NCBI GenBank assembly: GCA_050050395.1
Contig: JASFUG010000002.1
Coordinates: 1 to 36,359, forward strand
DNA from: Nitrospirota bacterium
Lineage (GTDB): Bacteria > CG2-30-53-67 > CG2-30-70-394
Reading direction: 5' to 3'
DNA: 36,359 nt
The translations under genes were made by a program, and so were the position numbers. Shown piece after piece: positions 509 through 24,607 of this stretch (the stretch's first letter is position 1; each line of letters begins with the position of its first letter). The notes under the pieces are model-generated. The model worked only from the letters and a program-made list of their open reading frames with translations, was not told where the DNA came from and made no database searches.

Positions 509-1447
509 CTATCTGAGGGCGGCCCGTGCCTGATCGAGCTCCGCCTGGGTGTAACGCTTCACGACCTCCACCTTGAACGGGAACGGATGATCGAGCAGCT
601 CATCTAGCGAGTTCACCGCCACGTCGCAGACCCGGATCCAGAACGGTCCGTGCGACGGACCGACGTTCTTCGCGTCCCGCAGGTCTTCGAGCAATGGAAC
701 GATCTCCTGCGCCAACGTGCGATCGTTCAAATAGGGCAGATCCTCCAGGGCCGCGACGCGTAGGGGCGGGTCATTCTGGATGAGTCGGTCCAGATACGCC
801 TGTCGATGCTCTGCGTCGCCCAGCCGGGCGAGGGCGAGCGACATCGCGTGCTTCGCATCCGGGTACCCCTCGCGGGCAAACTGTATGCGAAGCGGTTCGA
901 TTGCCGCCTTGTCACCCAGAGTACCGAGCGCGAGTGCAACCTGCTCTCGGACGTAGTCGTCGTCGTGATGCTGGAGCCGCTCCACGAGGGCCGGCACATC
1001 CGCGCCCGTACAGTGGTGGCGTACGCTCCGGGCGGCGATGCCCCGAACCATCTGGTTTTCGTCGTCGAGCGCCCGGAAGAGGCTCGCCTTGACCTCCGAT
1101 CCGCCCATGCGGTCGAGGAGCGAAACGGCCAGCTCACGGACTTCTGGATCGGCGTGTTCCAGCATCCCGATGACCTCGCTCGCCTGTTCCGATGATGGCG
1201 GGCGTTCCAGCAAGTCCCAGTCCTTGGCTTCGATCTGGTGAGCGATGGCGTGCGTATTCATGGGGTTGCCTTTCTCATGGCCTGCAACCGCGGCACCGGA
1301 TGCCGCCGCCTCCACCGGCGCGTCGCTGCCCACGGCCGGGCTTCCACAAAGGACCACCCCCACGACCAGCGGGGTCACGCCGACGGCCAGGGCGAAACGC
1401 GATCCGCGGCCATGGGTTCTGAGAGGTACGACGTGCGGCCATGACAT
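509..1447 (-). CDS. HEAT-repeat (PBS-lyase-like) protein with N-terminal signal peptide; candidate periplasmic immunity protein
   Basis: Part of ORF 509..1720. I chose the internal ATG at 1447 (cat at 1445-1447), which gives MSWPHVVPLRTHGRGSRFALAVGVTPLVVGVVLCGSPAVG.., a signal-peptide-like N-terminus. The longer upstream extension is Arg-rich junk that overlaps the preceding gene. The body has repeated D..VR..AA.aLg..G motifs (PEVRELAVSLLDRMG, ENQMVRGIAARSV, DYVREQVALALGTLGD, PPLRVAALEDL). The start codon is uncertain; an alternative is MNTHAIAH.., which has no signal peptide. Confidence 0.7.
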   Translation of the reverse strand: MSWPHVVPLRTHGRGSRFALAVGVTPLVVGVVLCGSPAVGSDAPVEAAASGAAVAGHEKGNPMNTHAIAHQIEAKDWDLLERPPSSEQASEVIGMLEHADPEVRELAVSLLDRMGGSEVKASLFRALDDENQMVRGIAARSVRHHCTGADVPALVERLQHHDDDYVREQVALALGTLGDKAAIEPLRIQFAREGYPDAKHAMSLALARLGDAEHRQAYLDRLIQNDPPLRVAALEDLPYLNDRTLAQEIVPLLEDLRDAKNVGPSHGPFWIRVCDVAVNSLDELLDHPFPFKVEVVKRYTQAELDQARAALR

Positions 1448-1461: not shown

Positions 1462-2595
1462 TCAATACGGATTCAACGATCGCCGCCGCGCACGACCGGC
1501 TTCGCCGTCGGTACCACTGACCGCAGCCGGCATGTCTTTGACGGTGATCTTTGCGCCTCGCGTCGTTGCCCCGTAGCCGACGTTGTCGCGGTGGGCGATC
1601 CCGGTCGCGGTGTACGGGCTGGGAGACCACATCAGCCGTCGGCGAGCCCACATATCCTGGTGCGCGGCGCCCGGAGCGACTGCATCTTGCCCATGTCCCG
1701 GATTGTCCAAGTAGTGGCACAGCTCGTGCGCCACGGAGTTATCCGTGGCGTTATCGGCGCTCACGATGCCGTAGCCGTTGGGTCTGGCGTTGGTGTTGTC
1801 GAATGTCAGTCCGAAGACCTCGTTCGCCGCGTGGACGAAGTAAACATTGATGTGATTCGCCCTCGGACGCGCGTTGATGATCGTCGAGAACTCCCGCCAG
1901 TCCTGTGGGGAATTCGTGTGCCCGGGGTCCGAGGCGCTCATCGTGGTGGTCATCTGGCCAGCCACGGCGAACGGCGTGACCCCGTCCCTCAGCACGTTGA
2001 GATTCTCGGATCGCGTCTGTGCGGCATTGTAGATGAACTCGATGCCCAGCGGTCGCCAGATGATGTTGATGTTCCGGAACGTCGCGACGAGTGATGCTGC
2101 AGTGCGAGCCGTGGCGACACCTCGGATCGTCACCAGGTGCGCGGTGACTCGAAGACGGCGCAGCTGGAAGATATGCGGCTCCAGCTCGCCGAGCACGGGC
2201 CCGGTCGTGCTACCCAGACGGACCTGGATCGACACCGGCCTGTTCGCATAGTCACGCACGCCCTTGATGCTGAAGATCCCGTCGTTCGGGATCGGGCCGC
2301 CTCCCGCAGGGGCGACGACCTCGGCACATTGCGTATCCGTACTGGTCGCGAAGAGTGGTGCCGCGGCGTCGATGTCCTCGCGTAGCACCTTGACCCGGAC
2401 CGTATCGCCCTCGGTGATGCTGACCATGGCGCCACGCGCCGGGGAGTTCCCCCAGGTCCCGGGCCGCGCGCCCATGGCGAAGCCCCGGTCATCCACCTCG
2501 GGCGCGTCGATCACGGGCGGCCCCGTCACCGCCCGCGTAAACCGCAAAGGGCAGATGATCTGGCGGTCGTGCCGGACCTTCACCTTGACGGCCAT
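1462..2595 (-). CDS. HExxH zincin-like (metzincin-like) metallopeptidase, no signal peptide; candidate T6SS cargo effector
   Basis: 377-aa ORF with ATG at 2595, preceded by GAGGGAG about 8 nt upstream. HELCH is at aa 290-294 (nt 1714..1728; revcomp reads cacgagctgtgccac). Another His follows in HELCHYLDNPGH, and a possible Met-turn (RRRLMWSP) lies about 25 aa further on. The N-terminal half is beta-rich. It is the fourth gene after vgrG in a tightly spaced operon. Confidence 0.75.
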   Translation of the reverse strand: MAVKVKVRHDRQIICPLRFTRAVTGPPVIDAPEVDDRGFAMGARPGTWGNSPARGAMVSITEGDTVRVKVLREDIDAAAPLFATSTDTQCAEVVAPAGGGPIPNDGIFSIKGVRDYANRPVSIQVRLGSTTGPVLGELEPHIFQLRRLRVTAHLVTIRGVATARTAASLVATFRNINIIWRPLGIEFIYNAAQTRSENLNVLRDGVTPFAVAGQMTTTMSASDPGHTNSPQDWREFSTIINARPRANHINVYFVHAANEVFGLTFDNTNARPNGYGIVSADNATDNSVAHELCHYLDNPGHGQDAVAPGAAHQDMWARRRLMWSPSPYTATGIAHRDNVGYGATTRGAKITVKDMPAAVSGTDGEAGRARRRSLNPY

Positions 2596-2621: not shown

Positions 2622-3140
2622 CTACGCGCCGGCGCGGTTCGTCATCTGATTCTGTACGGCGGCGTTGATCACCGCATCGTTGTAGAGCGACTCGTCGGTC
2701 TGAAAATCCAACACGGAGCGTTCGAACTCCATGACGTCGGGTGTGTTGTCGACGCCGTTGCCGTCGGGACCGCCGTGCCCGATCTGGTAACCCAACAGAC
2801 GCAATCGCTGTTTCTGCCCGCGTAGATCGGCCACCGGCGCCAGCGCGGCCGCCGAAAAACGCACCTCGTACTCGGCGACGCGATTCCCGCCGTGTAACAG
2901 CTCGAGGGTCGAGACGCCTCCGCGAATGGGCATGTTAATTCGCCCATCGTTTCCCGTGACGCCTCTCTGGATCACGAATCCCTGTGCACGGACCTGATAG
3001 TGGAGCCCCGCGACGGTCCGGTCTCCGCCGTTGTCGTTTCCCGGAGACCGTTGGAAGAAGATGTCCACCGTGCGGACGTTGAGCACGTTGTGAAGCACCG
3101 AGTTCGCAACCTGCCGTGCGATGGTTTCGAGGTCGCTCAT
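2622..3140 (-). CDS. Small beta-sandwich plus putative peptidoglycan-binding (PG_binding_1-like) domain protein
   Basis: 172-aa ORF whose ATG at 3140 overlaps the upstream stop (ATGA). The C-terminal part (LRGQKQRLRLLGYQIG...VDNTPDVMEFERSVLDFQTDESL) resembles the three-helix PG-binding repeat. The middle contains QRGVTGNDGRINMPI, a TxxDGxI beta-sandwich signature. Confidence 0.7.
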   Translation of the reverse strand: MSDLETIARQVANSVLHNVLNVRTVDIFFQRSPGNDNGGDRTVAGLHYQVRAQGFVIQRGVTGNDGRINMPIRGGVSTLELLHGGNRVAEYEVRFSAAALAPVADLRGQKQRLRLLGYQIGHGGPDGNGVDNTPDVMEFERSVLDFQTDESLYNDAVINAAVQNQMTNRAGA

Positions 3141-3751
3141 TGTCCAAACGCCTCCTTGAGCTTGTTCTTCGTGGGCTCGTCCAGTTGACCTGTGGGTTCG
3201 AGGCCTTCCGCTTCCTGAAACTCGCGCAGGAGGTCGCCAAGCTCGAGGCTGTCATCGTAACCCAGGCCTCGCAATCGCCCACGAACCCCCGTCTCGGTGT
3301 CTACTGGATCCAAGGTGCCGAGTCGAAGCGGATAAATCTCCTCGACATCGCCGTCGGTGATCGTCAGCTCACCCTGCTGCGCACCAGGAGGGATCGGCAC
3401 CTCAATCCTGCCATCGCCGTCCGTCGTGCCTTCTGTAGTCGTGCCATCGACCGTCAACACGAACCGCACGTTCGCGCGCGGCTCATCGTCTCGTTTGATC
3501 TGTAAACGCAACATCGCCGGCACACCCTTGCGCCGGAAGCGGTGACGCTGTTCGGAGCCGCCGGTCTCCTCCTTGCCACGCTTATCCGGGACGATAACGA
3601 CGTCGCCGGGGGCGAGGACGCTTGCATCACCGCGCTTCTCCTTCAGCTTGGCGTTGGCGGGGTCATCCCAGATCGTACCTGGGAACAGGCCATATTTCGC
3701 TGCGATGCTGGAGAGGCACTCGCCCTGTTTGACCTTATGCTCCGTGGCCAT
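3137..3751 (-). CDS. LysM domain plus beta-sandwich plus PG_binding_1-like domain protein
   Basis: The ORF track starts at GTG 3766. I prefer ATG at 3751..3749, which overlaps the vgrG stop as TGATG. The N-terminus HKVKQGECLSSIAAKYGLFPGTIWDDPANAKL...LAPGDVVIVP is LysM-like. The centre contains EGTTDGDGRIEVPIPPG. The C-terminus VRGRLRGLGYDDS...LLREFQEAEGLEPTGQLDEPTKNKL is PG-binding-like. Confidence 0.8.
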   Translation of the reverse strand: MATEHKVKQGECLSSIAAKYGLFPGTIWDDPANAKLKEKRGDASVLAPGDVVIVPDKRGKEETGGSEQRHRFRRKGVPAMLRLQIKRDDEPRANVRFVLTVDGTTTEGTTDGDGRIEVPIPPGAQQGELTITDGDVEEIYPLRLGTLDPVDTETGVRGRLRGLGYDDSLELGDLLREFQEAEGLEPTGQLDEPTKNKLKEAFGQ

Positions 3752-6069
3752 CACGCCTTCTCCCACGCTTCCTTGTCGAGGTCGGGGAAGGTGATCTTGC
3801 AGTTGGCGCCCTTCTCCACGCCGGTGACCTTGAGCACGCCGTCGGGACCGGTGCGGCCCGTGTAGACCTTGCCGTCGGGCATCGTCACCATGACCTTCTC
3901 CCCGGCCACCGGCTGATCGGCCTCGTCAATCAGCTCGACCTCGAGCCACGACTTCTCCTCCTCGTCCTCGGCGGCATCCTTGTGGGTCGGGGCGTCGAGG
4001 GCCTTGGCCACGATGGGGTCCATCTCCGTCTTCTGCTTGCTGTAGGTCAGGCCCTTGCCGGTGACCACCGTCGCGGCGACGGCGGCCTCCAGCGGTGCGG
4101 CCGCCGCGACCGCCTTGCCCATCTTGCCGGAGCCGGCGGAGCCGCCGCTGTTGAGCTTGAGCATCGGGCCACTGATGGTGACGCCACTGGAGTCGACCTT
4201 GAGGAACGACCCACCCACCTTGATGGTCAGCTCCTTCATCCCCTCGATGACCAGGCCCATGGCCTTAATGAAGAGGTCGCTGCCCACCTCCTGGCTGTAG
4301 TTCTTCTTGTACGCCTCGATGACGTCGCCCTTGACGGTGAGCGAACGGCTCTCGCCGATCTCGATGGACTGCTTCTTGGCCACCTTCAACGACTGGTCCC
4401 GGGAGATCTCGGTGACCTGATCGCGCGCCACCATGGAGTGCTCGTCGCGCTCCACCTTCTGGACCTTGTCGCGCGCCACCACGAGATGGCGGTCGTTGCC
4501 GATGTGCTCCCGGCGATCGTTCTTGACCCGGAGGTCGAGGTCCTTCTCGGCGTGGAGCAGGAGCTGCTCGTCGCCCTTCTTGTCCTCGAAGGAGATCTCG
4601 TTGGAGCCGCCACCGCCCTTCGAGCTGTCGGTCTTGATCACGCTGCGGGTCTTGTTGTCCGGCAGCTTGTAGGGCGGCACCTGGTCGGCGTTGTAGACGC
4701 TGCCGGTGATCAGGGGGCGATCCGGGTCGCCCTCCTCGAAGGCCACCACGACCTCCTGCCCGACCCGCGGCAGGAACAGGCAGCCGTAGCCGCTGCCGGC
4801 ATGGGCCTGGGCGACGCGCACCCAGCACGACGCCTTGTCGTCGTTGATCCCCGCCCGGTCCCAGTGGAACTGCACCTTGACCCGGCCGTGCTCGTCGGTG
4901 TGGATCTCCTCGCCAGAGGGCCCGACCACCCGTGCCGTCTGGGTCCCGGGGATCATCGGCCGCGGCGTCACCCGCTGCGGGCGAAAGGACAGGCTCGCCG
5001 GGATGCATTCGATATCGTTCTCGTAGATCTGCTGGCCGCCCTCGGTACCTGTCGCCTCCGCTCCGACCGCCTGCGGCTGAAAGCCGTAGTGCTGCACGGC
5101 GGTGATCAGGTAGGACTGGTTGAAGCTCGACCGCTCGTGGCCATCGAGGGTGAACTTGTAGCCACTCACCAGCCGCCGGCAGTCGCTGTGGGCGGTCATC
5201 ACGTCGGCCGGCACGGCGCCCTCTTCCCTGCGCCGTTTGGCAAGCTCGGTACCAACGTCCTTTTCCCGGTAGCCACCGGGATAATCGAAAACCTGGAGCT
5301 CCTTCCACTTGTCACCGTCGGCGCTCGCCGTCAGATCAAGGGAGGGCTTGGTGAAGTTGTAGTCGCGGAGCTGGCTTGCGCCGGATCGGATCTCCTGCGT
5401 CACCTGGCACGCCTGGATGAACTCCTCGGTGGTGGTCCCAAATCCCTCGTCGTTGAGCAGCACGGTGGTCGGCTTGACGATATCGGTGTGGGCGTCCGGG
5501 CTATCACCGAACACAGCCACGTGGCCGGTTTCCTTGTGCTCGAAGAAGTAGCAGATCCCTTCCTCCTCGAGGAGGTAGGCGATGAAGTCCATGTCGCTCT
5601 GCCGGTACTGGACGCAGTACTCGCGTGGCTTGTAGGTCCCCTTCAATGAGAAGCGATAGCTATCGCTGGGGACCTGGGCCTCCTCAAGCACCGCCTTGAC
5701 GATGTCCGGCACCGACTTCTCCTGGAAGATGCGGAAGTTCTGGCGCTGAGTCAGGAGCCAGAGCGCCGGTACCAGGGTCGCGCGGTAGCGGGTGTAGTCG
5801 GTGCCCCGGCCGGCCTGCTCAAAACGCGACACGATGCCGCTCACGTGACGCGGCTCGGGGTTGCCCTGGATGGTGAGCAGGGCCGCCTCGCCCAACACCT
5901 TGGCGAAATCGATCTCGCCGTCGGTGCTGGCGAGGTCCAGGGTGAACTGGAAGAGTTGCGAGATCCCCTCCGTGCCGTTGAACTGCACGACCTTCAGGAC
6001 AGTGTCATCCAGAGCTCCGACCCGAAAGGTCAGGTCGGCCTCGGCTGCGCGATTGCGTATGACGGCCAT
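3751..6069 (-). CDS. vgrG: T6SS spike protein VgrG (TssI) with a roughly 70-aa C-terminal beta-sandwich (TTR-like) extension
   Basis: 772 aa. The N-terminus ...LKVVQFNGTEGISQLFQFTLDLAS... and the gp27/gp5-like core (GRVKVQFHWDR, RVAQAHAGSGYGCLFLPRVGQEVVVAFEEGDPDRPLITGSVYN) are classic VgrG. GAGGAG lies upstream of ATG 6069. The C-terminal tail contains MPDGKVYTGRTGPDGVLKVTGV. Confidence 0.95.
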   Translation of the reverse strand: MAVIRNRAAEADLTFRVGALDDTVLKVVQFNGTEGISQLFQFTLDLASTDGEIDFAKVLGEAALLTIQGNPEPRHVSGIVSRFEQAGRGTDYTRYRATLVPALWLLTQRQNFRIFQEKSVPDIVKAVLEEAQVPSDSYRFSLKGTYKPREYCVQYRQSDMDFIAYLLEEEGICYFFEHKETGHVAVFGDSPDAHTDIVKPTTVLLNDEGFGTTTEEFIQACQVTQEIRSGASQLRDYNFTKPSLDLTASADGDKWKELQVFDYPGGYREKDVGTELAKRRREEGAVPADVMTAHSDCRRLVSGYKFTLDGHERSSFNQSYLITAVQHYGFQPQAVGAEATGTEGGQQIYENDIECIPASLSFRPQRVTPRPMIPGTQTARVVGPSGEEIHTDEHGRVKVQFHWDRAGINDDKASCWVRVAQAHAGSGYGCLFLPRVGQEVVVAFEEGDPDRPLITGSVYNADQVPPYKLPDNKTRSVIKTDSSKGGGGSNEISFEDKKGDEQLLLHAEKDLDLRVKNDRREHIGNDRHLVVARDKVQKVERDEHSMVARDQVTEISRDQSLKVAKKQSIEIGESRSLTVKGDVIEAYKKNYSQEVGSDLFIKAMGLVIEGMKELTIKVGGSFLKVDSSGVTISGPMLKLNSGGSAGSGKMGKAVAAAAPLEAAVAATVVTGKGLTYSKQKTEMDPIVAKALDAPTHKDAAEDEEEKSWLEVELIDEADQPVAGEKVMVTMPDGKVYTGRTGPDGVLKVTGVEKGANCKITFPDLDKEAWEKA

Positions 6070-6684: not shown

Positions 6685-9381
6685 CTACTCCACTTCGCCG
6701 AACGTCATGGCGAACTCTCCTGCCTCAGTCAGCTCCAGGTCCAGGCGACTCGGGAGGGGGCCGGCGCTCATGCGCTGCAACAGCTCGGTGGAGATCTGCG
6801 GCAGCAGCGTGCCTTGCAGGATGTGGTCGATGTTGCGTGCCCCGGTCTCCACCTCGGTACAGCGCGCGGCGATCTGCTCCACCACGGCGTCCGAGTAGTG
6901 GAAGGCCATGCGGTGGCTGTCGTGCAGGCGGCGCACCACCTTCTTCATCTTCAGGCGCACGATGTCACCGAGGACGTCGGGACCCAGGGGGTAGAACGGA
7001 ACGATCATCATCCGCGCGAGCAGCGCCGGCTTGAAGTGGGCGGAGAGGATCGGGCGGATGGCAGTGGCCAGCTCCTCGGGAGTGGGCCGCTCGCCGTCGG
7101 TGCATAGGGCCATGATCTCGTCGGTGGCCAGGTTGCTGGTAAGGAAGATGCAGGTGTTCTTGAAGTCGATCTCGCGCCCTTCCCCGTCGCTCAGGGTCCC
7201 CTTGTCGAAGACCTGGTAGAAGAGGTTCAGAACCTCCGGGTCTGCCTTTTCCACCTCGTCCAGCAGCACCACCGAGTACGGCCGCTGGCGGACCGCCTCG
7301 GTGAGAACGCCGCCCTCGCCGTAGCCGACGTAGCCGGGTGGTGAGCCGATCAGCTTGCTCACCGTGTGCTTCTCCTGGAACTCGCTCATGGCAATGCTGG
7401 TCATGAACTGCTCACCGCCGAATAACAGGTCGGCGACGCCGAGGGCGCACTCGGTCTTGCCCACGCCGGAGGTGCCGACGAACAGGAAGATCCCTATCGG
7501 CTTGCTGGGGTCCTGTACCCCGGCCTTGGCCGCCTTGATCCCCTGGGCGACCGCGGCCACCGCCTGATCCTGCCCTTTGATGCGCTCCTTGAGGCGGCGG
7601 TCGAAGTCGAGCACCGCCGTCGCCTCGTCCTTCACCATGTTGCCCACCGGTACCCCGGTCCAGTCGGCGACCACCTGGGAGACCGTCTCCCCCGTCACCT
7701 CGGTGGGGATCATGGGTGCCTCTCCCTGGATTTCCTTCAGGGCCGCCGCGGCGGCGGCGAGCTCGGCGCGCAGATCCTCCAGGGAGACGGCTTCGGCCGG
7801 GGTCGCCCCCGCCGCCTCGGTCCCGACTTCGCCCTCGGCAACGTCCGGGGTCTTGCCGGCCTCCGCCAGGCTCACCCGCTTGCGAAGATCGAGCAGGCGG
7901 GAGACCGCCTCCTTCTCCTTGAGCCACCGCTCGCGCAGGGCGTCGTGCTTCTCCTGCGCCTCCTCAAGGAGCCCAGTCAGCTCTTGGAGACGCTCACGGT
8001 CCACCTCAAAGCCACTCTCCGCGTCACGCTGCAGGGCCACCTGCTCGCGAGTCAGAGTCTGCACGCGCCGCTCCAGGTCCTCCAGGCTGCCGGGCTTGCT
8101 GGTGATGGCGATCTTCACCCGCGCGGCCGCCGTGTCGAGTAGGTCGACTCCCTTGTCCGGGTGCTGGCGGCCACTGATGTAGCGGCTGCCGAGGGAGGCA
8201 CAGGCGGCCACCGCCGAATCGGCGATGTGCACGCCGTGGGCCTGCTCGTAGCGCTCGCGCAGGCCGCGCAGCATGCCGGTCGCCCCGTCCGCGTCGGGCT
8301 CGTCGACCTTCACCGGCTGGAAGCGCCGAGCGAGGGCCGGGTCCTTCTCGAAGTACTTCTTGTACTCCGACCAGGTCGTCGCCGCGACGGTACGCAGCTC
8401 TCCCCGGGCGAGGGCCGGCTTGAGCAGGTTGGCCGCGTCACCGCCCCCGGCAGCACCGCCGGCGCCGATCAGGGTGTGGGCCTCGTCGATGAACAGGACA
8501 ATCGGCTTGGGGGACGATTTCACCTCGTCGATCACCCCCTTGAGGCGGTTCTCGAACTCTCCCTTCACGCTGGCACCGGCCTGGAGGAGCCCCATGTCGA
8601 GGCCGAGGAGATCGACTCCCTGGAGGATCTCCGGCACATCGTCCTCGATGATGCGCAGGGCAAGCCCTTCCACCAGGGCGGTCTTCCCGACGCCCGCCTC
8701 GCCGACGATGATCGGGTTGTTCTTGCGGCGCCGGCCGAGGATGTCGACCATCTGACGGATCTCCCGGTCGCGACCGAAGATCGGATCGATCCGCCCGGCG
8801 CGCGCCTCGGCGGTGAAGTCGATGGTGAAGCGGCCCAGGGCGGTGTCACCACGGGGCCCGGGCGCGCCTTCCGGTGCTGCGGCGGCGCGACCCGGCTCCC
8901 GTACGTCCTCCACCGAGCCGGAGACGATGGTCAGCAGGTTACGACGTAGCTCGTCCTTGCCGACCTTCTCCAGCAGGTCGAGGTAGGGGCCGTTACCGAA
9001 GCGGCGTGGGTTGGAGGCCAGGCAGGAAAAGAGGACGCCGGAGCGCACCTCGGCGAGACCCAGCTCCACCGAGCCCACCAGCCACGCCTCCTGGATCCAC
9101 TCCATGAGGGTAGGTGAAAAGACCGGCCGGCCGGTGTTGCCTGTCTTGAGGTCCTCGACCGTCTCCTGCACGGCACGCAGGAAGTCGGCCGCATCGATGT
9201 CGAAGTGCGACAGGATCTGCACCACGTCGCCATCGGCGTCCTCGGCGATCCTGAGCAGCACGTGCTCGACGGTCACCTCGTAATGACCCCGTGCCACGCA
9301 CAGGCCGGCGGCCCCCTCCATCGCCTTGGTGGTCCTGGTGTTGAGCCGCTGGAGCAACGGCTTCAGATCGACACTGATCAT
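6685..9381 (-). CDS. clpV: T6SS AAA+ ATPase ClpV (TssH)
   Basis: 898 aa with a Clp N-domain and two AAA modules carrying Walker A motifs GEAGVGKTA and [15 protein letters not shown] lies upstream of ATG 9381. Confidence 0.95.
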
Positions 9382-9485
9382 GGTCTATCCCTCCTCATGG
9401 GAGCACTACAGAAAGTCTTTTTTTGCCACAGATTACGCAGATTTCTACGACCGATTAAGGACTGCCTGGCGAGAACCTTCTGTCC

Positions 9486-9576
9486 TCACCACAGGGACAC
9501 AGAGAGCACAGAGACCCCCCAAGTCACTCGTTCCCTTTGCTCTTCCTTCTCTGTGCCCTCTGTGACTCTGTGGTGA
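9486..9576. repeat. Imperfect inverted repeat of a 28-nt CACAGAG-rich unit (arms 9486..9513 and 9549..9576, 35-nt spacer)
   Basis: The left arm is tcaccacagggacacagagagcacagag. The revcomp of the right arm is tcaccacagagtcacagagggcacagag, matching at 25/28 positions. A third copy lies at 36233..36260. The repeat sits in the relatively AT-rich tssG-clpV spacer. Confidence 0.75.
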
Positions 9577-9642
9577 AACCGCGGTCGTCGTCTAGCTCGT
9601 TCGCAATCACATCATGCGGCACCATCCGCGGCAAATCGTCGT

Positions 9643-10662
9643 TTACGCCACGCCGGCGAGACAGACCACCGGATCTTCGGCGCAGGTACCGAGCCATGTG
9701 GTCCATCCGAGGCGCGGCGCGGGGTCGGCGGCACCTAGACGCAAGGGCGGCACCTCCGCGCGGTGGAGCTGCACGTGGACGTCGCAGGCGAGAGGGTCGC
9801 GGAGGTAATAGTGAACCAGGGCGAGGCCGGCACGCAGTGCCTGGCCGCCGGGGAGCAGCGCCTCGAACAGGGTGAACGACACCGGTCCGATACGGACAGC
9901 GAACTTTCCGGCGCGATCGAAGACACGGCGGCCGGCGACCGCCGTCTCTCCGAGACGGGCGGTCGCACCGCCGAGGCGGGCCAGCTGCTCCGGCGCGATC
10001 GTCACCCAGCGCGCGACGCACTCCTCGACGAGCACCGCGACGCCTCCGAGCTCGTCGCTCAGCAGGCACTCCAGACCGCGCGCCGAGTGGCTCTCGCTGC
10101 CCAGTAGCCCGGCGTAGTGCAGGAGATGGACCGGATCCATCCCCACCGCTGCGCCGCATCCCTCCGTGGCCACGCCCACGAGGCCGAGCAACAGGGGAGA
10201 CAGATCGTCATTTCCCCCGGTGCGAAAACGCAGGGCGTACCGATACTTCAGCCACGCTCGATAGAGGAGCGACAGCAGGCGGTGGTGGAAGAGATCGAGG
10301 AACTCCCGGCGCGTGGATTCGTCGTTCTGCCACAGCACCGCCTCGGTGAAGTACGCGGGAAGCGGCGAGTCCGCCCCATAGAGGCCGAGGAACGAGGTGG
10401 TGAGCTGCATCCGTGGACCACTCGCGGCCCGGCCGCTGTCGATCTCGTGGATCTCCACCACATCGCTGGCGGGAAAGGCACAGTTCGCGGCCGGACGGAG
10501 GCGAATCGCCTCACGCTGCGCCGGTCCCGCGCCTCCGATCGGCGCGGCGTCGGGACGTGCGGCCTCCAGCAGCCGTACGGCCTGAAAGAACGGAAAACGC
10601 CGCGCCTCCGCCAGCAGGCGGCGCATCACAGGAGCGTCTGTCGTCCGAGGCGTGCCGGCCAT
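9643..10662 (-). CDS. tssG: T6SS baseplate protein TssG
   Basis: 339 aa. The N-terminus ...RRFPFFQAVRLLEA... and overall length are typical of TssG (ImpH/VasB). It overlaps the end of tssF by 37 nt. Confidence 0.9.
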   Translation of the reverse strand: MAGTPRTTDAPVMRRLLAEARRFPFFQAVRLLEAARPDAAPIGGAGPAQREAIRLRPAANCAFPASDVVEIHEIDSGRAASGPRMQLTTSFLGLYGADSPLPAYFTEAVLWQNDESTRREFLDLFHHRLLSLLYRAWLKYRYALRFRTGGNDDLSPLLLGLVGVATEGCGAAVGMDPVHLLHYAGLLGSESHSARGLECLLSDELGGVAVLVEECVARWVTIAPEQLARLGGATARLGETAVAGRRVFDRAGKFAVRIGPVSFTLFEALLPGGQALRAGLALVHYYLRDPLACDVHVQLHRAEVPPLRLGAADPAPRLGWTTWLGTCAEDPVVCLAGVA

Positions 10663-12386
10663 CGGTAGACCTCCCCTTGCCGCACCCCACGGACCGTGAG
10701 GCGGGTGAAGGCGTTGATGGTGGAGAGAGTGGCGAACAGCTCATTCAATACGGTGCCGAACAGCACCATATCCCCCTCGCCGGTGAAGCTCTCCTCGTCG
10801 AGCTCCACCGACACGTCGCTGCCGCGCACCGGCGCACCACGGAACAGCAGGTCGGCCGAGGTGACGTGCACGGCGCGGATGCCATCCAGGCGGAGCTGGT
10901 TTGCCGCCGCAGCCTGGCGGTCGACTCGCGCCTGGAAATTGTACAGGGAGAGGATTCCGCGCAGGACGTCGGCGCTCATCATCGGCAGGCGGCTCAAGGC
11001 GAGGTGCGAGATCAGGCGCCAGTGCAACCCCTCGCCCAGGGGCGGTGGCACGGCCCCGGTGACCCGCGTGATGTTCGTGAACGTCGCGTACTCGGGAGAG
11101 GTGCTGGTCGCCACGTTTATGTCGCCCACCCCGAGGCTCGACGGCAGGCGGCGATTGGTGCAGGTCATCTCGATCCCGACGGTCTCGGTGGGCGGCATGG
11201 CCGCTTCCCCGCTGCGGGAGACGAACGTGATGTAGGTCTCGGTCCCCTGGCCAACCACCGAGTCGACGAGTCGGGTGTGATAGAAAAGCGCGTCGCGCTC
11301 GCGCGCCGCCATCTCGTGGGAGAAGGCGTAGAACGGTTCGTAGCGGCGCTCCTGACTGGTCCCGACTTCCCAGCCCAGGACCCGCTCGATGGCGTAGATC
11401 TCGTAGTGCGCCGGGTCCTTGCCCTCGGGGCGGATCCGGTATGCGGTCCGGTCGTGCTCGACGCGCAGGGGGTCGGAGCGGTGCGGGAAGAGGTTCACCA
11501 CCGGCGTGCAGAACAGGCGCAGGTTGTCGGCGGTCACCCGCGGCATCTCCCCCGCGGGGCGCCGGTACGGCAGGCGCAGGACCCATTCCTCTGCCTCGCT
11601 GAGCTCACTGGTGGCAAGGTCCGTCAGCTCGACGGCGAGAAACTTCGCCGCCAGGGCGAAGTATTCCTGCACCAGGCGATAGCCGGGGAAGGCGTTGGCC
11701 GGGTACGGCAGGACCGTCTCTTCGTCGCCGAAGCCGCACGGGCGCACCGCCAGCGCCGGCAGGTCGCGGCGCTCCGTCGCCCTGCCTCCGACCCGCGCTT
11801 CCACGGTGAGCCCCGTCGCGAGGCGCGTGAACAGGAGATAGAGGCCGTACATCTGCCGCGGCTCGCCGTGCAGGAGAAACCGCAGGCGCTGCACATCCAG
11901 GCCGGCGAGGCTTACCCCTTCCAGGGGGCGGAGGGTCAAGACCAGTCGCGGACTCTCGCCCGCCGGCTCCTCGATCCGCGCCTCGCTGAGCTGAATCGGC
12001 CACATCTCCACGGCCGCCGTGGTGCGAAACCGGCACGGAGTGCCGTCCACCGGCACCGAGTGGATCTCGATGCCGCGGTCCACCACCTGGCGGTCGCGCA
12101 GGGCCGCCGGCCGCGGCTGGAACTCGACCACGGACATCGCGGGAATCGGCCGCAGGTAGTGTGGCCACAGCAGCCCCATCAGAGTGTGGGTGATCTCCGG
12201 CAGCTCGTCATCGAGCTTCTGCCGGATCCGCCCCGTGAGGAAGGCGAACCCCTCCAGGAGGCGCTCCACGTCCGGATCGGTGCCGTGGGACGCGAGCATG
12301 TGCGCCACCTGGGGGTGGGCGGCGGCGAACTCCTCACCCATCTCCCGCAGGAAGGCGAGCTCGTCCTGGTAGTACTTGTTGAACAT
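10626..12386 (-). CDS. tssF: T6SS baseplate protein TssF
   Basis: 586 aa. The N-terminus MFNKYYQDELAFLREMGEEFAAAHPQVAHMLA is the canonical TssF (ImpG/VasA) start. Confidence 0.95.
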   Translation of the reverse strand: MFNKYYQDELAFLREMGEEFAAAHPQVAHMLASHGTDPDVERLLEGFAFLTGRIRQKLDDELPEITHTLMGLLWPHYLRPIPAMSVVEFQPRPAALRDRQVVDRGIEIHSVPVDGTPCRFRTTAAVEMWPIQLSEARIEEPAGESPRLVLTLRPLEGVSLAGLDVQRLRFLLHGEPRQMYGLYLLFTRLATGLTVEARVGGRATERRDLPALAVRPCGFGDEETVLPYPANAFPGYRLVQEYFALAAKFLAVELTDLATSELSEAEEWVLRLPYRRPAGEMPRVTADNLRLFCTPVVNLFPHRSDPLRVEHDRTAYRIRPEGKDPAHYEIYAIERVLGWEVGTSQERRYEPFYAFSHEMAARERDALFYHTRLVDSVVGQGTETYITFVSRSGEAAMPPTETVGIEMTCTNRRLPSSLGVGDINVATSTSPEYATFTNITRVTGAVPPPLGEGLHWRLISHLALSRLPMMSADVLRGILSLYNFQARVDRQAAAANQLRLDGIRAVHVTSADLLFRGAPVRGSDVSVELDEESFTGEGDMVLFGTVLNELFATLSTINAFTRLTVRGVRQGEVYRWPARLGRQTLL

Positions 12387-12387
12387 G

Positions 12388-12410
12388 ATTTTTTCGCGAC
12401 GCGAAAAAAT
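12388..12410. promoter_or_regulatory. Perfect 23-nt AT-rich palindrome filling the tssE-tssF spacer
   Basis: The sequence is attttttcgcg-a-cgcgaaaaaat, with 11-nt arms and one central nt. Its last nt is the first base of the tssE stop codon complement (tta at 12410-12412). It ends 1 nt from the tssF ATG (12386). No Shine-Dalgarno sequence is visible for tssF. Confidence 0.6.
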
Positions 12411-12826
12411 TATCCCTTCACACTGATGCGGCCAGAGGGCGAGATGGTGGTCTCGAACCAGACGGCGGCCTGCTCGTCGGCGGTGACCAGCTCGCCGGTG
12501 ATCTCGAAGCGCAGGCGGAAGAAGTCGTCAGGGTCCTCCACCGGGTTTACTCGTACCCGGCGTAGGCGTGGCTCGTAGCGCTCGATCGAATGGCGGATCG
12601 CCCGCTGCATCCGCCCTACGGCCTCCGGAAAGCTGTGCACCATGTCGGTGAAGTCGGGGATGCCGTAGTCGTCCAGGGTCAGACAATTGCCCTGGCGGGT
12701 GTTGAGCATGCGCTGCAGGTGGGCGAGGACAGACTCCGCCAGGTCCTCGGTAGACTCCTCCACCCGCCGCGGCGCATTGGGCCGCGGGTCATCGAGACGG
12801 TCGAGGAGGCTCCGTTCCCGCGCCAT
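12410..12826 (-). CDS. tssE: T6SS baseplate protein TssE (gp25-like)
   Basis: 138 aa. SLLDRLDD...ESVLAHLQRMLNTRQG...YGIPDFTD... is a typical GPW/gp25 family pattern. Confidence 0.85.
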   Translation of the reverse strand: MARERSLLDRLDDPRPNAPRRVEESTEDLAESVLAHLQRMLNTRQGNCLTLDDYGIPDFTDMVHSFPEAVGRMQRAIRHSIERYEPRLRRVRVNPVEDPDDFFRLRFEITGELVTADEQAAVWFETTISPSGRISVKG

Positions 12827-12848
12827 GTCGCGCCATCGCCGGGCGAAA

Positions 12849-12876
12849 CGTGGCGGCCCGAGACCGGGCCGCCACG
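12849..12876 (-). terminator. Strong GC hairpin (12-bp perfect stem, 4-nt loop) just after hcp; possible attenuator or mRNA stabiliser
   Basis: The sequence is cgtggcggcccg-agac-cgggccgccacg. On the transcript it begins 10 nt after the hcp stop and is followed by only UUU, so it is not a full intrinsic terminator. Confidence 0.4.
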
Positions 12877-12886
12877 GCGCCCCAAA

Positions 12887-13372
12887 CTACTTCGGTGCGA
12901 TCCAGCTATCGGACGCTGAAACGCCGTCGACCTCCCACGTCCACTCGATCTCCTTGTAGGTGCAAGAGACCTCCTCCATGTGGCCGTACTGCTCGGTCTG
13001 GGTGTCGAGGGCGTTGGGCATGAAGGGGCGTATGTTAACGATGATCGCGTCCTTCAGGGTGGTGGTGAAGTAGTGCTCCTCCTGGCCCGTGGGGTCGATG
13101 CGGTACCACTTGAGCACCACCTCCTTCATGTGCTCGCCGGTGCACAGGGCCTGGTAGAGCAGGGGGCTCGCCTTGTCCTGGAACTTGACGATGGTGAACG
13201 GCTCGTGGATTCGCTTGCCCTGGGCGAGGCCGGTCTGGGGATCACGCGGGATCCGCACCTGGTGGTTGAAGGCCTCGACGAGAATCGTGTCTTCGCGACC
13301 GGCCATGTCGCAGGAGCCGGCGATCTCTCCCTGATTCTCACCTGTGAACGTGATGTGGCATGGCATTGGCAT
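12887..13372 (-). CDS. hcp: T6SS tube protein Hcp (TssD)
   Basis: 161 aa. MPMPCHITFTGENQGEI.GSC...EAFNHQVRIPRDPQTG...HEPFTIVK..DKASPLLYQAL is a typical Hcp1 family pattern. GGAGGA lies upstream of the ATG. Confidence 0.95.
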   Translation of the reverse strand: MPMPCHITFTGENQGEIAGSCDMAGREDTILVEAFNHQVRIPRDPQTGLAQGKRIHEPFTIVKFQDKASPLLYQALCTGEHMKEVVLKWYRIDPTGQEEHYFTTTLKDAIIVNIRPFMPNALDTQTEQYGHMEEVSCTYKEIEWTWEVDGVSASDSWIAPK

Positions 13373-13448
13373 GGTGTGTCCTCCTCTACGGGGGGGCTGC
13401 CCGGTTTGCCGTCCGTGGCAGCGGTTAGTGAGTGTCTACCGTCTTCTT

Positions 13449-13464
13449 AGCAGCCGCCGTGCCA
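13449..13464 (-). promoter_or_regulatory. Sigma54 (-24/-12) promoter upstream of hcp
   Basis: The minus strand reads TGGCAC-GGCGG-CTGCT, with GG and GC correctly spaced. It lies about 77 nt upstream of the hcp ATG, in a 230-nt spacer that also holds an AT-rich tract. Confidence 0.55.
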
Positions 13465-13490
13465 GCCGTGCCGAACCGCCAAGAAAACCC

Positions 13491-13503
13491 TAACTCATTG
13501 AAA
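13491..13503 (-). promoter_or_regulatory. Possible IHF site between the upstream motif and the hcp sigma54 promoter
   Basis: The minus strand reads TTTCAATGAGTTA, against the consensus WATCAANNNNTTR (one mismatch). It is preceded by the A/T-rich tract cgtttttcttttat. Confidence 0.3.
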
Positions 13504-13559
13504 TAAAAGAAAAACGAATCGTCAGCGGTTGAACGGCACCCACCCCCTCGGCCGTGCCG

Positions 13560-13570
13560 CTCCGGAATCC
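13560..13570 (-). promoter_or_regulatory. Candidate upstream activator site (GGATTCCGGAG on minus), second copy
   Basis: The same 11-mer occurs at 6632..6642. Here it lies 95 nt upstream of the -24 element of the hcp promoter. The adjacent GCCGCTCCGG is also shared with the vgrG upstream region. Confidence 0.3.
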
Positions 13571-13602
13571 GCAGGCGGGTCCTCCAGGTTTCGGAAGGGC
13601 TA

Positions 13603-15087
13603 CTACTTGTCGAGCTTGCCCACCAGCGACAGGGTGAAGAACGCCCCCATGTACTTGAAGTGGGGCCGCACCTTCATGTCGACCTTGTACCAGCCGGGAT
13701 CGCCCTCCACGTCGGAGACGATGATCTGCGCCTGGCGCAGGGGGCGCCGGCCGCGGGTACGCGGGTCGACCACGTCCTGGTCGGAGACGTATTGCCGGAT
13801 CCAGGTATTGAGCTCCTTTTCCAGGTCGCCGCGCTCCTTGAACGAGCCGAGCTGCTCCCGCTGCAGCACCTTGATGTAGTGCGCGAGGCGGTTCGTGATC
13901 ATGGTGTACGGGAGCTGGGTGCCGAGCTTGTAGTTCGCCTCCGCCTCCTTGCCCTCCTTGCTGGTGCCGAAGAACTTCGCCTTCTGGCAGGAGTTGGCGG
14001 AGAAGAAGCAGGCGTTATCGCTGCCCTTGCGCATGGCGAGGGCGATGAAGCCCTCTTCGGCCAGCTCGAACTCGCGGCGCTCGGAGATCAGCACCTCGGT
14101 GGGGATCTTGGTCTGGATCTCCCCCATCGCCTCGTACTGGTGGAGGGGCAGGTCGTCCACCGTGCCGCCGCTCTGCGGGCCGATGATGTTGGGGCACCAG
14201 CGGTACTTGGCGAAGCTGTCCGCGAGGCGGGTGGCGAACGCGAAGGAGGCATTGCCCCAGAGATAGTTCTTGTGGTCGTCGGTGACCGTCTCGTTGTAGG
14301 TGAAGGCCTTGACCGGGTTGTTCTCCTCGTCGTACGGCAGGCGCAGGAGGAAGCGCGGCAGGGTGAGGGCCATGTAGCGCGCGTCCTCCGACTCCCGGAA
14401 ACTGTTCCACTTGGCGTACTGCGGCCCCTCGAAGATCGCGTGCAGGTCCTTCAGGTTAGGCATCTTGAGGAAGTCGTCCTCACCGAAGAACTTGGGCCCC
14501 GCCGAGGCGATAAATGGCGTATGGGCCATGGCCCCCACTGCCGAGACGTTCTGCATCAGGGCGATGTCCGGAGACGAAGCACTGAACTCGTAGTTGGCGA
14601 CCATCGCCCCGAACGGCTCGCCACCGAACTGGCCGTACTCGGCGGTATAGACCTGCTTGTAGAGCCCGGACTTGGTAATCTCCGGCGCGTCCTCGAAGTC
14701 CGCCAGGAGGTCGTCCTTGGAGACGTTGAGGATCTGCATCTTGATGTTCTCGCGAAAGTTGGTGCGGTCGATCGCGAACTTCAGGCCGCGCCAGGCGCTC
14801 TCCAGCTTCTGCACGTCGGAGTGGTGGAGGATCGCATCCACCTGCGAGGAGAGCTTCTTGTCGATCTCCGCGATCATCTCGTTGACCACTGACTGATGGA
14901 CCTTCTCCCCGGCGTGCGCCGGGGTCACCAGCTCCTCGATAAACTTGCTCACCCCCTGCTTGGCAAGGGTGTATCCCTCGTCCGCGGGCGAGAGCTTGGT
15001 CTCGCTGAGGATTTGATCGAGCAGGCTGCCTTCCGCCTCTTCTGCCGCCGCGGGTGCGGCTGCGGCTTCTTTTTGTTCTTCCGCCAT
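13603..15087 (-). CDS. tssC: T6SS contractile sheath large subunit TssC (VipB)
   Basis: 494 aa with family-typical sequence throughout (…AEYGQFGGEPFGAMV.NYEF…, C-terminus FTLSLVGKLDK). AAGGAG lies upstream of ATG 15087. Confidence 0.95.
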   Translation of the reverse strand: MAEEQKEAAAAPAAAEEAEGSLLDQILSETKLSPADEGYTLAKQGVSKFIEELVTPAHAGEKVHQSVVNEMIAEIDKKLSSQVDAILHHSDVQKLESAWRGLKFAIDRTNFRENIKMQILNVSKDDLLADFEDAPEITKSGLYKQVYTAEYGQFGGEPFGAMVANYEFSASSPDIALMQNVSAVGAMAHTPFIASAGPKFFGEDDFLKMPNLKDLHAIFEGPQYAKWNSFRESEDARYMALTLPRFLLRLPYDEENNPVKAFTYNETVTDDHKNYLWGNASFAFATRLADSFAKYRWCPNIIGPQSGGTVDDLPLHQYEAMGEIQTKIPTEVLISERREFELAEEGFIALAMRKGSDNACFFSANSCQKAKFFGTSKEGKEAEANYKLGTQLPYTMITNRLAHYIKVLQREQLGSFKERGDLEKELNTWIRQYVSDQDVVDPRTRGRRPLRQAQIIVSDVEGDPGWYKVDMKVRPHFKYMGAFFTLSLVGKLDK

Positions 15088-15156
15088 AATCGGGTCTCCT
15101 TACGTCGGCGGGCATGGCGCCGCCGCGGCAATTATTGTCGTTCTCGGGGAATGGAG

Positions 15157-15660
15157 CTACGCCTTCTCCCCCCCCTCCCCCGACGGTCCCAGCTCCTTGA
15201 GGAGCTCGGCGCGCTTGGTCTCGTCGGCGAGGATACTTTCGATCTTCTTGCGGAACGCCGGCAGGTTGCCGAGTGGACCCTTCAACGCGGTGAGGGCGTT
15301 GCGCAGCTGCAGGAGCTGGTCGAGCTCCGGCACCTGACGTGCGACGCTCTCCGGGTTGAAGTCCGCCAGGGTGTCGAACTTGAGGTGCACCGCCAACTGG
15401 TCGCCCGCGACGCCGGAAAGACGATCTTCGACATTCGCGTCGAGCTCCAACTTCTGGCTGCGCATCACGTCGTTGAAATTGTCCTTGTCGACCTGGATCG
15501 CCTTGCGCTCCTCGAGGGGCGTGTCGTCGGCGCGCAGGGTGTAGTCGCCGAGCATCATGAACTTGAGGGGCAGCTCCACCTCCTCCTGGGCACCGCCGGT
15601 GGCCGGCTTGTAGGTGATGTTGACCCGCTCCTTGGGAGCGACCGAGCCTTCTTTTGCCAT
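15157..15660 (-). CDS. tssB: T6SS contractile sheath small subunit TssB (VipA)
   Basis: 167 aa. MAKEGSVAPKERVNITYKPATGGAQEEVELPLKFMMLGDYT is the canonical TssB N-terminus. AAGGAG lies upstream. Confidence 0.95.
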   Translation of the reverse strand: MAKEGSVAPKERVNITYKPATGGAQEEVELPLKFMMLGDYTLRADDTPLEERKAIQVDKDNFNDVMRSQKLELDANVEDRLSGVAGDQLAVHLKFDTLADFNPESVARQVPELDQLLQLRNALTALKGPLGNLPAFRKKIESILADETKRAELLKELGPSGEGGEKA

Positions 15661-15732
15661 GGCGTTCTCCTTTTAGGTGGCGGGAATCCGACCAGCGGCG
15701 TACCCCGCGAAACGATCCTGAGAAATGTGCAG

Positions 15733-17262: not shown

Positions 17263-18191
17263 CACCGCCACCTCCAGCCCGCCAGTCGCGAGACCGGGAC
17301 TCCCCCGGCGTCCAATGCCGCGGCGATCCCCGGCACGAGGCGCCCACCGGCTGCCGCCAGCGTCGGAGCATCCATCGCATCGACCAACCGCTCGTCCTGG
17401 CCCATCCCCAGGAGAGTGAGGAAGACACCGGGAGCAGGCGACCCGCCGACCACCCAGAGCACGTCGTCCCCCCAAACGGCCGCATGGCTCGCAGCGTCCC
17501 GCGGCCGCAGACAATCCAGAAGATGGAGCCAGCCGGACGTGGTTCCCTGCCCCTCCGCCACGGGTAGGCGGAGGACCCAGCCGCCACGCGGCCGATCGAC
17601 CACCGTCTCGATCAGGAGCTGCAATGTCGGGGCGTAGATCTCCGCATCGGGGAGCAGGCGAGAGAGGCGCGCCTCCAATTCTTCCTCGACCGGATAGACA
17701 ACCTCCCGGGGCTCGACGAGGGCTGCCAGGCCGCGCACACGTTCCAGCCACGCCGTGCGATCGACCATCTCCTCGCCGGTCCGTGCCACCTGCGCCGCAC
17801 CGTCGAGGTACGCCTGGTAACGCAAGGGTACGAGGAAGGCCGGCTCCGCCTGCCGGGCGCCAGCCAGGAGAAACAGGGTGCAGGGGAACCGCCGGCCTGC
17901 GCTGTCCTGGCTCGGGTGCATGTGACCGATGCAGTAGCGCTGCCCCTTCTCCGGTGGCGGGAAAAAGAAGTCGCCGCCACGCCAGCCCCCGTACACCCCA
18001 CGGCCCTCCCCTTCGGGTCTGCCGTCGAGACGGCTGTGTGCCGCCGCCATTCCCCCCTGGATCCAGCGGTCGACCGCCGCCACCTCGGGATGCGTCGCAT
18101 TGAGGCGCAGGAACTCCCGATCCATTGGAAGCTTGCCGTAACAGCCAACGACCGGCGCCGTCGCGGCACGGCTGCGAAGCCAGCCGATCAC
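17262..18191 (-). CDS. tagF: T6SS-associated protein TagF (DUF2094 / ImpM-like)
   Basis: Within ORF 17262..18695. The GTG at 18191 overlaps the tssM stop as GTGA. The N-terminus VIGWLRSRAATAPVVGCYGKLPMDREFL carries the GKLPxxxEF signature of TagF. Confidence 0.8.
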   Translation of the reverse strand: MIGWLRSRAATAPVVGCYGKLPMDREFLRLNATHPEVAAVDRWIQGGMAAAHSRLDGRPEGEGRGVYGGWRGGDFFFPPPEKGQRYCIGHMHPSQDSAGRRFPCTLFLLAGARQAEPAFLVPLRYQAYLDGAAQVARTGEEMVDRTAWLERVRGLAALVEPREVVYPVEEELEARLSRLLPDAEIYAPTLQLLIETVVDRPRGGWVLRLPVAEGQGTTSGWLHLLDCLRPRDAASHAAVWGDDVLWVVGGSPAPGVFLTLLGMGQDERLVDAMDAPTLAAAGGRLVPGIAAALDAGGVPVSRLAGWRWR

Positions 18192-22482: not shown

Positions 22483-22556
22483 TACTGACTCACTCTCCGG
22501 GTGGACACGATGTCCCCGAAACGACAGACGACCCCATGCGGGCGATGCCAATCCGC

Positions 22557-22588
22557 GTAGGGGTGTGCCGAGCGAAGCGAGGCACACC
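22557..22588 (+). repeat. REP-like hairpin element (GTAGGG + 8-bp stem + 11-nt loop)
   Basis: The sequence is gtaggGGTGTGCCgagcgaagcgaGGCACACC, in the 224-nt tssK-tssL spacer. Confidence 0.5.
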
Positions 22589-22621
22589 GATTCCTGCGGT
22601 GCCATGCCATAGCTCCGGGGC

Positions 22622-22654
22622 GGTGGGCCGCGCTGCGCTTGGCGCACCCTACGG
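22622..22654 (-). repeat. REP-like hairpin element, inverted orientation relative to 22557..22588
   Basis: The plus strand reads GGTGGGCCgcgctgcgcttGGCGCACCctacgg. The revcomp begins ccgtagggtgcgcc. It has the same architecture as the copy at 31542..31574. Confidence 0.5.
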
Positions 22655-22706
22655 CGTGAAATCGTTGCGCACTCATCTGCGTAGTCTGCGCCTCACGAGC
22701 GGAGCA

Positions 22707-24568: not shown

Positions 24569-24607
24569 CGAAAATCCTCCTCGAATCATGGCGCAACCAT
24601 GCCCCAT

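Follow-up and report, generated by a model that had tools for sequence, protein, structure and literature searches.

We analyzed a stretch of 36,359 nucleotides (nt) from a Nitrospirota bacterium (contig JASFUG010000002.1; the whole stretch is hereafter called the window), in which a complete type VI secretion system (T6SS) cluster is closed by an operon encoding, in this order, VgrG, a LysM/peptidoglycan-binding protein, a 172-amino acid protein (P172), a 377-amino acid protein with a HELCH motif, and a HEAT-repeat protein. The study concerns the 377-amino acid protein and its partners. We consider it probable that this protein is a T6SS-delivered metzincin effector acting in the periplasm, with the HEAT-repeat protein as its immunity protein.

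The initial annotation, made from the sequence, had described an HExxH protein with near-metzincin spacing, and all its coordinates and residues proved correct. The reading frame has no room for a longer N-terminus, since its ATG is the first start codon downstream of the preceding stop codon. The HELCH motif provides H290, H294 and the candidate catalytic glutamate E291 in the context GIVSADNATDNSVAHELCHYLDNPGHGQD. The third His, H301, lies six residues past H294, one residue beyond the five of the HExxHxxGxxH motif, as had been noticed, and the expected downstream Met (LMW) corresponds to M322, which is 21 residues past H301 and 28 past H294. The zinc motif thus reads HELCHYLDNPGH, with H, E and H in place, Asp297 instead of Gly8, and the third His one residue late. 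We estimate the probability of finding one HExxH in 377 random residues at roughly 1%; the motif is not a chance occurrence here, because H290, E291, H294 and H301 are invariant in the alignments.

A relationship to known proteases, which could not be assigned by eye, was recognized with a profile of the homologues (matches to adamalysins), not with the single sequence in Pfam, NCBIfam or the PDB. Compared with PDB sequences, the profile matched trimerelysin II (E value 8.7e-8), about 15 other snake-venom adamalysins (1e-4 to 1e-3) and ulilysin (9e-3), and it also matched ADAMTS, mirolysin and fragilysin. The aligned region begins at the first helix of the upper sub-domain and includes the zinc motif. 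Scanning 48 members against Pfam at E values up to 1 gave sub-significant Reprolysin_5 matches in 22 of them (best 4e-5), and Reprolysin_3/4 or M43 matches in others.

The full-length AlphaFold2 model (predicted local distance difference test, pLDDT, 87.3; predicted template modeling score, pTM, 0.88) consists of an all-beta region (residues 1–143) followed by a strand/helix/sheet domain. The strand-helix-strand pattern that had been likened to the upper sub-domain of zincins was recovered as a strand at 146–157 (RVTAHLVTI), a helix at 166–183 (ending in NINIIW) and a strand at 249–254 (INVYFVH). HELCH was placed on the predicted active-site helix (285–295), and a C-terminal helix follows at 365–373. 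Because Foldseek results with the entire model were dominated by weak matches to immunoglobulin (Ig) and p53-like sandwiches, residues 139–377 were modeled alone (pLDDT 89.1, pTM 0.89). The top 50 PDB matches of this model were all metzincins with a probability of 1.00, the best being ADAM-8 (E value 1.4e-6, TM-score 0.61); behind it come ulilysin, mirolysin, adamalysins, ADAMTS, PAPP-A and fragilysin. The modeled catalytic domain is thus of the metzincin fold and most similar to the adamalysin/ADAM and pappalysin/ulilysin types. The fold, the conserved zinc ligands and the Met agree with the initial proposal of a zincin or metzincin-like protease, and H290, H294 and H301 would bind the zinc of a catalytic site predicted from the sequence.

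Several features are shared with the adamalysins (M12B) and the pappalysin/ulilysin group (M43), namely the strand, the helix, the antiparallel edge strand, the HExxH helix, the third His, the Met and the C-terminal helix. The model also contains the mixed sheet of the metzincin clan MA(M), and M322 is located downstream of the third ligand, as is the conserved Met of that clan. However, identities in the structural alignments are only 11–16%, the Gly of the motif is replaced in the window protein, and the family has neither a cysteine-switch pro-domain nor a signal peptide, while it adds an obligatory segment carrying a DDRGF motif and an Ig domain. The window protein reached no Pfam Reprolysin model and reads HGQD at the third His (family consensus HAD). 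Since no curated model was reached and no Asp directly follows the third His, we leave it outside M12B.

Among 5.8 billion proteins searched, 131 clusters of full-length homologues with 35–89% identity were found. All of them are unnamed or called hypothetical, and a Pfam domain (Reprolysin_5) is annotated on just one. In an alignment of 48 sequences A289, H290, E291, H294, H301, R319, Y341 and G342 are invariant, and in one of 70 sequences the Met of RRRLMW reaches at least 90% conservation with R319 again invariant. Of 159 close homologues, 158 contain HExxH; the remaining one is a fragment. His, Glu, His and His are invariant across some 160 homologues, and these four positions, the Met of RRxLM and a DVGYG motif are retained even in members at 26–31% identity.

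The distance between the second and third His varies within the family. It is five residues in about 117 of some 217 full-length members (about half), 35 of which have the exact HExxHxxGxxH and 82 lack the Gly, and six residues in about 79 to 91, including the clade of the window protein; these classes come from a regular-expression tally and are approximate, some sequences fitting two classes and a dozen being mis-binned. In a distant clade (26–31% identity) an insertion of about nine residues precedes the conserved His and the spacing is about 14. At the zinc motif a Ralstonia member reads HEIGHFLGLWHPAT and a Thiodictyon member HELGHFFSLWHPSD. Judged from these alignments, the third His lying one residue too far appears to be a feature of the clade; the loop between the second and third His seems plastic, with conserved ligands and a literal motif that depends on the clade. 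The carriers belong to the Gemmatimonadales (closest, 89% identity), Bryobacterales and other Acidobacteriota, Phycisphaerae, Pirellulales, Methylomirabilota, Zixibacteria and Thermodesulfobacteriota, and the module spans at least six phyla.

The N-terminal region of about 140 residues had been described as beta-rich and as a possible delivery or adaptor-binding domain. The first part agrees with the AlphaFold2 model; a generic delivery tag it is not. Searching 1.84 billion representatives with a profile of this domain retrieved 248 proteins, distributed among Gemmatimonadota, Acidobacteriota, Planctomycetota, Methylomirabilota, Zixibacteria, Thermodesulfobacteriota and Proteobacteria. Among the 107 that are full length, 106 have a downstream HExxH; the module is therefore integral to the metzincin family and not a tag common to different toxins, which rules out a shared trafficking domain of the MIX or FIX kind. 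Conservation is also higher in residues 1–143 than in the catalytic domain (on average 64% versus 44% identity with the window protein), and this holds in 47 of 47 homologues.

Foldseek against viral models identified residues 56–143 (approximately) as a Big_2-like Ig sandwich. The profile of the whole N-terminal domain gave no significant match in the PDB or Pfam, and residues 1–55 matched nothing in either. These 55 residues hold the strongest motifs of the family, VPxRFxRA and APDxDDRGF, both retained in the distant clade, and DDRGF is the most conserved motif outside the zinc site. A relationship of the N-terminal module with the beta-sandwich of the LysM protein or P172 was rejected (hhalign probabilities of 0.2% and 1.1%). 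A metagenomic protein of 1347 residues (P0176) contains nine tandem matches to positions 57–127 of the profile and no HExxH; it is an Ig-repeat protein having only the Big_2-like core in common with the module.

The gene belongs to the vgrG operon, whose reading frames are tightly packed. The stop codon of vgrG overlaps the start of the LysM gene (TGATG), the stop codon of the LysM gene overlaps the start of P172 (ATGA), and the HEAT gene starts 14 nt past the metzincin stop codon. The mechanically called HEAT reading frame (509–1720, 403 amino acids) overlaps the metzincin gene by 259 nt and is too long; the ATG at 1447 agrees with the HEAT homologues. P172 corresponds to the C-terminal two thirds of the LysM protein, of which it is a paralogue lacking the LysM domain (hhalign 99.5%, E value 7.5e-23), and 15 of 20 members of its family match PF01471 (best E value 1.1e-10).

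The predicted destinations of these proteins differ. The N-terminus of the metzincin, MAVKVKVRHDRQIICPLRF, has no hydrophobic h-region (maximum Kyte-Doolittle value of 1.16 over 11 residues), in agreement with the lack of an export signal noted initially. Using the same kind of hydrophobicity heuristic throughout the family, we found no signal-like N-terminus among 37 metzincins (two artefacts of upstream read-through, in loci L020 and L021, being discounted), among 49 LysM proteins or among 36 P172 proteins. In contrast, 33 of 39 HEAT homologues have a signal-like hydrophobic N-terminus, many with a lipobox Cys. A candidate effector without a recognizable Sec/Tat-type signal is therefore accompanied by an adjacent, co-conserved protein that is predicted to be targeted to the envelope.

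We then compared 36 loci, taken from species representatives of GTDB and from metagenome contigs. All four genes following vgrG are collinear in 30 of the 31 loci with enough flanking sequence. In 18 of 29 loci VgrG is encoded no further than 10 kb away, and at least nine have it as the immediate upstream gene. On the plasmid pTs485 of Ca. Thiodictyon syntrophicum, the RefSeq annotation gives the succession PAAR, VgrG, peptidoglycan-binding protein, peptidoglycan-binding domain protein, hypothetical protein and HEAT repeat protein. In most loci, conservation within the module is lowest for the HEAT gene.

Gene fusions and duplications were also found. On the megaplasmid of Ralstonia sp. RRA.1 (NZ_CP146092.1; locus L041, 8197–12787), a single gene of 689 amino acids directly after vgrG joins a P172-type module (E value 1.7e-17) to the N-terminal module and metzincin (E value 4.3e-50); this stretch carries no annotation in the PLSDB record. 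The same fusion of P172 and metzincin occurs in three metagenomic proteins (P0244, P0259 and P0252). These fusions speak for the protease and the PG_binding_1 protein travelling and functioning together. Downstream of the fusion gene in Ralstonia lie, one after another, a HEAT-family gene with a signal peptide, an orphan copy of the toxin C-terminus (184 amino acids, 90% identical) and another HEAT gene (88% identical). Such a pairing of an orphan toxin fragment and a HEAT gene is the hallmark pattern of toxin-immunity loci. Two HEAT genes are also present in four loci of the distant clade (L033, L034, L037 and L039, at about 11230–13000), where the first product has no signal peptide and the second a lipoprotein signal; such pairs may provide cytoplasmic and periplasmic protection.

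We propose the following scheme. The metzincin would be a zinc endopeptidase made in the cytoplasm without a signal peptide, and the LysM/peptidoglycan-binding protein, a candidate bridge between VgrG and effector, probably recruits it to the tip of VgrG. P172 would be a subunit of the effector, and in some bacteria it is a covalent domain of it. Protease and PG_binding_1 partner would be fired together into the periplasm of neighboring Gram-negative cells, where an envelope target would be cleaved; peptidoglycan-tethered envelope proteins are as plausible a substrate as peptide stems. In the periplasm of the producer, the exported HEAT (lipo)protein most likely binds and neutralizes the protease, and so would protect sister cells. 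The initial annotation had raised the possibility of a delivered envelope toxin, and delivery is supported by the place of the gene after vgrG, by the missing signal peptide and by the exported, co-conserved HEAT partner.

A more elaborate version of this scheme is a latent toxin in several parts. The invariant DDRGF segment could silence the metzincin in the producer, in the manner of the aspartate switch of pro-astacin or pro-fragilysin, and/or the PG_binding_1 partner could act in trans like the pro-domain of a matrix metalloproteinase (MMP), activity appearing only once the peptidoglycan-binding parts dock on the prey sacculus. We regard this version as rather doubtful; if it were true, the HEAT lipoprotein would be the first solenoid-type protein inhibitor of a metzincin.

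Several observations weigh against the proposal of a T6SS-delivered effector with its immunity protein. The window protein by itself reached no Pfam or NCBIfam model and found nothing significant in the PDB sequence search. In 11 of 29 loci the genes form orphan cassettes among unrelated genes, with no vgrG or T6SS core gene within 10 kb, and dependence on the T6SS is not universal in cis. Nearly all homologues stem from metagenome-assembled genomes, and in one locus (L025) the HEAT gene has no recognizable signal. Metzincins are not known to be peptidoglycan hydrolases or muropeptidases, and for this reason the substrate cannot be read from the two peptidoglycan-binding partners. HEAT repeats are interaction modules of a generic kind. 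The published immunity role of a HEAT protein concerns a cytoplasmic nuclease toxin (PMC3482391).

Four other explanations were weighed against these data. The same T6SS-delivered metzincin might be aimed at eukaryotic cells or extracellular proteins, as an ADAM-like sheddase or a matrix protease used against protists or fungi, the HEAT protein then not conferring immunity. The closest structural relatives are indeed eukaryotic ADAMs, snake-venom proteases and the host-directed fragilysin, and VgrG2b, the best-studied T6SS metallopeptidase, also has a eukaryotic role according to a passage of PMC8867033 that quotes Sana et al. However, an exported HEAT protein that is co-conserved, duplicated, and present in the orphan cassette of Ralstonia is hard to explain without periplasmic self-protection, and the LysM and PG_binding_1 partners point to the bacterial sacculus; we consider a eukaryotic target unlikely. 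The partners could also be read as signs of a module serving the producer itself, in peptidoglycan anchoring, remodeling or processing for T6SS assembly, or in maturation of the spike, and not of a toxin. Two peptidoglycan-binding proteins, a place at the end of the structural cluster and the translational coupling to vgrG would suit such a function, but three proteins without signal peptides cannot reach the periplasm of the producer via Sec or Tat. Such a function also fits poorly with the orphan cassettes, with the LysM paralogues that head cassettes encoding a lipase and PAAR or an M23 peptidase, and with the duplication of the toxin fragment and HEAT gene in Ralstonia. This makes it very improbable.

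The orphan loci, together with the absence of the LysM gene on one chromosome (L021), would agree with a self-contained toxin system that is independent of the T6SS and released by lysis or another route, vgrG being a mere frequent neighbor. The proximity of VgrG (within 10 kb in 18 of 29 loci, and in nine or more of the loci immediately upstream) speaks against it, as do the overlapping start and stop codons in the window and the Ralstonia fusion gene placed directly after vgrG; moreover, effector cassettes located away from the core cluster are usual for T6SS. Independence from the T6SS thus appears quite unlikely. Least probable of all is that HExxH is a relic in a non-catalytic binding or structural protein. 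The clade of the window protein does depart from the canonical motif (Gly8 to Asp, third His displaced by one), and its N-terminal module is more conserved than its catalytic domain, but retention of H, E, H, H, of the RRxLM Met and of DVGYG at 26–31% identity would not be expected of a dead site.

The proposed T6SS toxin and its immunity protein resemble, in part, systems already described. MMP zymogens, whose pro-domain belongs to PF01471, also combine PG_binding_1 with a metzincin. The two are brought together in trans in the window and in cis in Ralstonia, P0244 and P0259; however, there is no cysteine-switch motif here, and an Ig domain and the DDRGF segment stand between the two parts. 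The Tpe-Tpi pairs (VgrG2b C-ter/PA0261 and Tpe1/Tpi1) are T6SS HExxH metallopeptidases acting in the prey periplasm, with periplasmic, lipoprotein or membrane-anchored immunity proteins (PMC6899460). The proposed module is like them in having an HExxH protein, delivered by the T6SS and acting in the periplasm, with an envelope immunity protein encoded next to it. It differs from them in its protease family, in that the effector is a separate cargo not fused to VgrG, and in that the immunity candidate is a HEAT solenoid unlike PA0261. VgrG2b has been described as carrying an M91 domain (PMC8867033); M91 gave no match in the Pfam scans of 48 members at E values up to 1, and the VgrG2b chain is absent from the PDB sequence matches listed and from the top 50 fold matches.

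Stand-alone LysM proteins encoded downstream of vgrG have been shown experimentally to bridge VgrG and the next effector, and the same study lists PG_binding_1 with the domains linked to recruitment of effectors (PMC10673891). The window has a stand-alone LysM gene at this position, between vgrG and the effector gene. By description, its product is similar to Kalk_10460 of Ketobacter, a small LysM protein without signal peptide encoded directly after vgrG and before a cargo effector; here, in contrast, the LysM protein is linked to a metzincin, and a second PG_binding_1 paralogue stands between adaptor and toxin. SESEF3709_03438 of Salmonella pathogenicity island 6 (SPI-6) is a 243-amino acid Reprolysin_4 protein predicted by bioinformatics only as a candidate T6SS effector (PMC10469887). 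Compared by description, it shares the status of predicted cargo, the reprolysin-like HExxH domain and the adjoining immunity gene with a signal peptide, but it is much shorter and lacks an N-terminal module, LysM or PG_binding partners and a HEAT immunity protein. A literature search turned up no description of the metzincin family, only this Salmonella candidate. The family is new and so far unannotated, and it belongs to two kinds already known, the metzincin proteases and, on our reading, the T6SS effector-immunity cassettes that have a LysM adaptor.

A widespread gene family so far called hypothetical thus receives a name, and the metzincin fold would join the small set of T6SS protease toxins. 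With the four-gene signature (LysM adaptor, PG_binding_1 subunit, metzincin, exported HEAT protein), T6SS cargo can be sought in soil and sediment phyla that have received little study. Two of the carriers are in culture, Ralstonia sp. RRA.1 and Ca. Thiodictyon syntrophicum Cad16T, and allow the prediction to be put to the test. Should the HEAT protein be the inhibitor, it would represent a new structural class of metzincin inhibitor.

Table 1. Positions in the window of the metzincin gene, its predicted functional elements and the associated T6SS genes.
Feature	Position	Strand	Description
Candidate metzincin effector gene	1462..2595	minus	377 aa, ATG start, no signal peptide
Metzincin-fold catalytic domain	1465..2166	minus	residues 144-377
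HELCH (H290, E291, H294)	1714..1728	minus	residues 290-294, predicted active-site helix 285-295
H301	1693..1695	minus	candidate third zinc ligand; invariant; +1 relative to the canonical motif
M322	1630..1632	minus	Met-turn candidate in RRRLMW; at least 90% conserved
N-terminal module	2167..2595	minus	residues 1-143: conserved segment 1-55 and Big_2-like Ig sandwich ~56-143
DDRGF motif	2479..2493	minus	residues 35-39; D35 and R37 invariant
HEAT-repeat protein	509..1447	minus	312 aa from ATG 1447; signal-like N-terminus RFALAVGVTPLVVGVVLCGS; candidate immunity protein
172-aa protein (P172)	2622..3140	minus	beta-sandwich and PG_binding_1
LysM + beta-sandwich + PG_binding_1 protein	3137..3751	minus	~204 aa from ATG at 3751
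VgrG spike protein	3751..6069	minus	772 aa, C-terminal extension
T6SS core cluster	6685..25912	minus	tagH, tssJ, tssK, tssL, tssM, tssA, tssB, tssC, hcp, tssE, tssF, tssG, clpV

Further observations were made on the partners. BLASTP found nothing in support of the C-terminal extension of VgrG being a relative of the LysM protein, and the HEAT protein was rejected as a member of TIGR02270 (25.7 bits for a cut-off of 206.8). A scan of positions 1–6500 for promoters and terminators gave nothing above chance. The P172 family ends, past PG_binding_1, in a conserved short tail (…AGA, …AGG or …GGE; positions 2622–2640 of the window, minus strand). Paralogues of the LysM protein head other cassettes (L001, 5536–8752, minus strand; L002, 5405–8791, plus strand), one with a 288-amino acid protein, an LCAT-like lipase and PAAR, another with an 843-amino acid M23 peptidase; in these phyla, the LysM protein thus seems to lead cassettes in general. 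On the Zixibacteria chromosome CP070796.1 (L021, about 9675–12158), where the LysM gene is missing, the P172 gene is reduced to its C-terminal part, and this module may be a decaying or re-wired cassette.

The window DNA has a G+C content of 65%, and, as is usual at such a composition, the mechanical list holds long overlapping or antisense reading frames such as 509–1720 (minus strand) and 3982–5649 (plus strand). Between clpV and vgrG, a 196-amino acid reading frame of the GxxExxY/PD-(D/E)XK-like type (6089–6679, minus strand) matches PF13366 with an E value of 1.7e-5 and TIGR04256 with 26.8 bits, under the cut-off of 35. Directly upstream of tagH, a reading frame of 681 amino acids (26077–28122, minus strand) has no Pfam match; it could be an uncharacterized T6SS accessory gene or an over-long call in high-GC DNA. 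Beside the T6SS cluster, and all on the minus strand, are encoded an SLT lytic transglycosylase with DUF4124 (29613–30344), a sigma-54 activator/response regulator (31569–33179) and a histidine kinase (32974–34176). The transglycosylase may act as a cell-wall gate, and the activator and kinase may be regulators.

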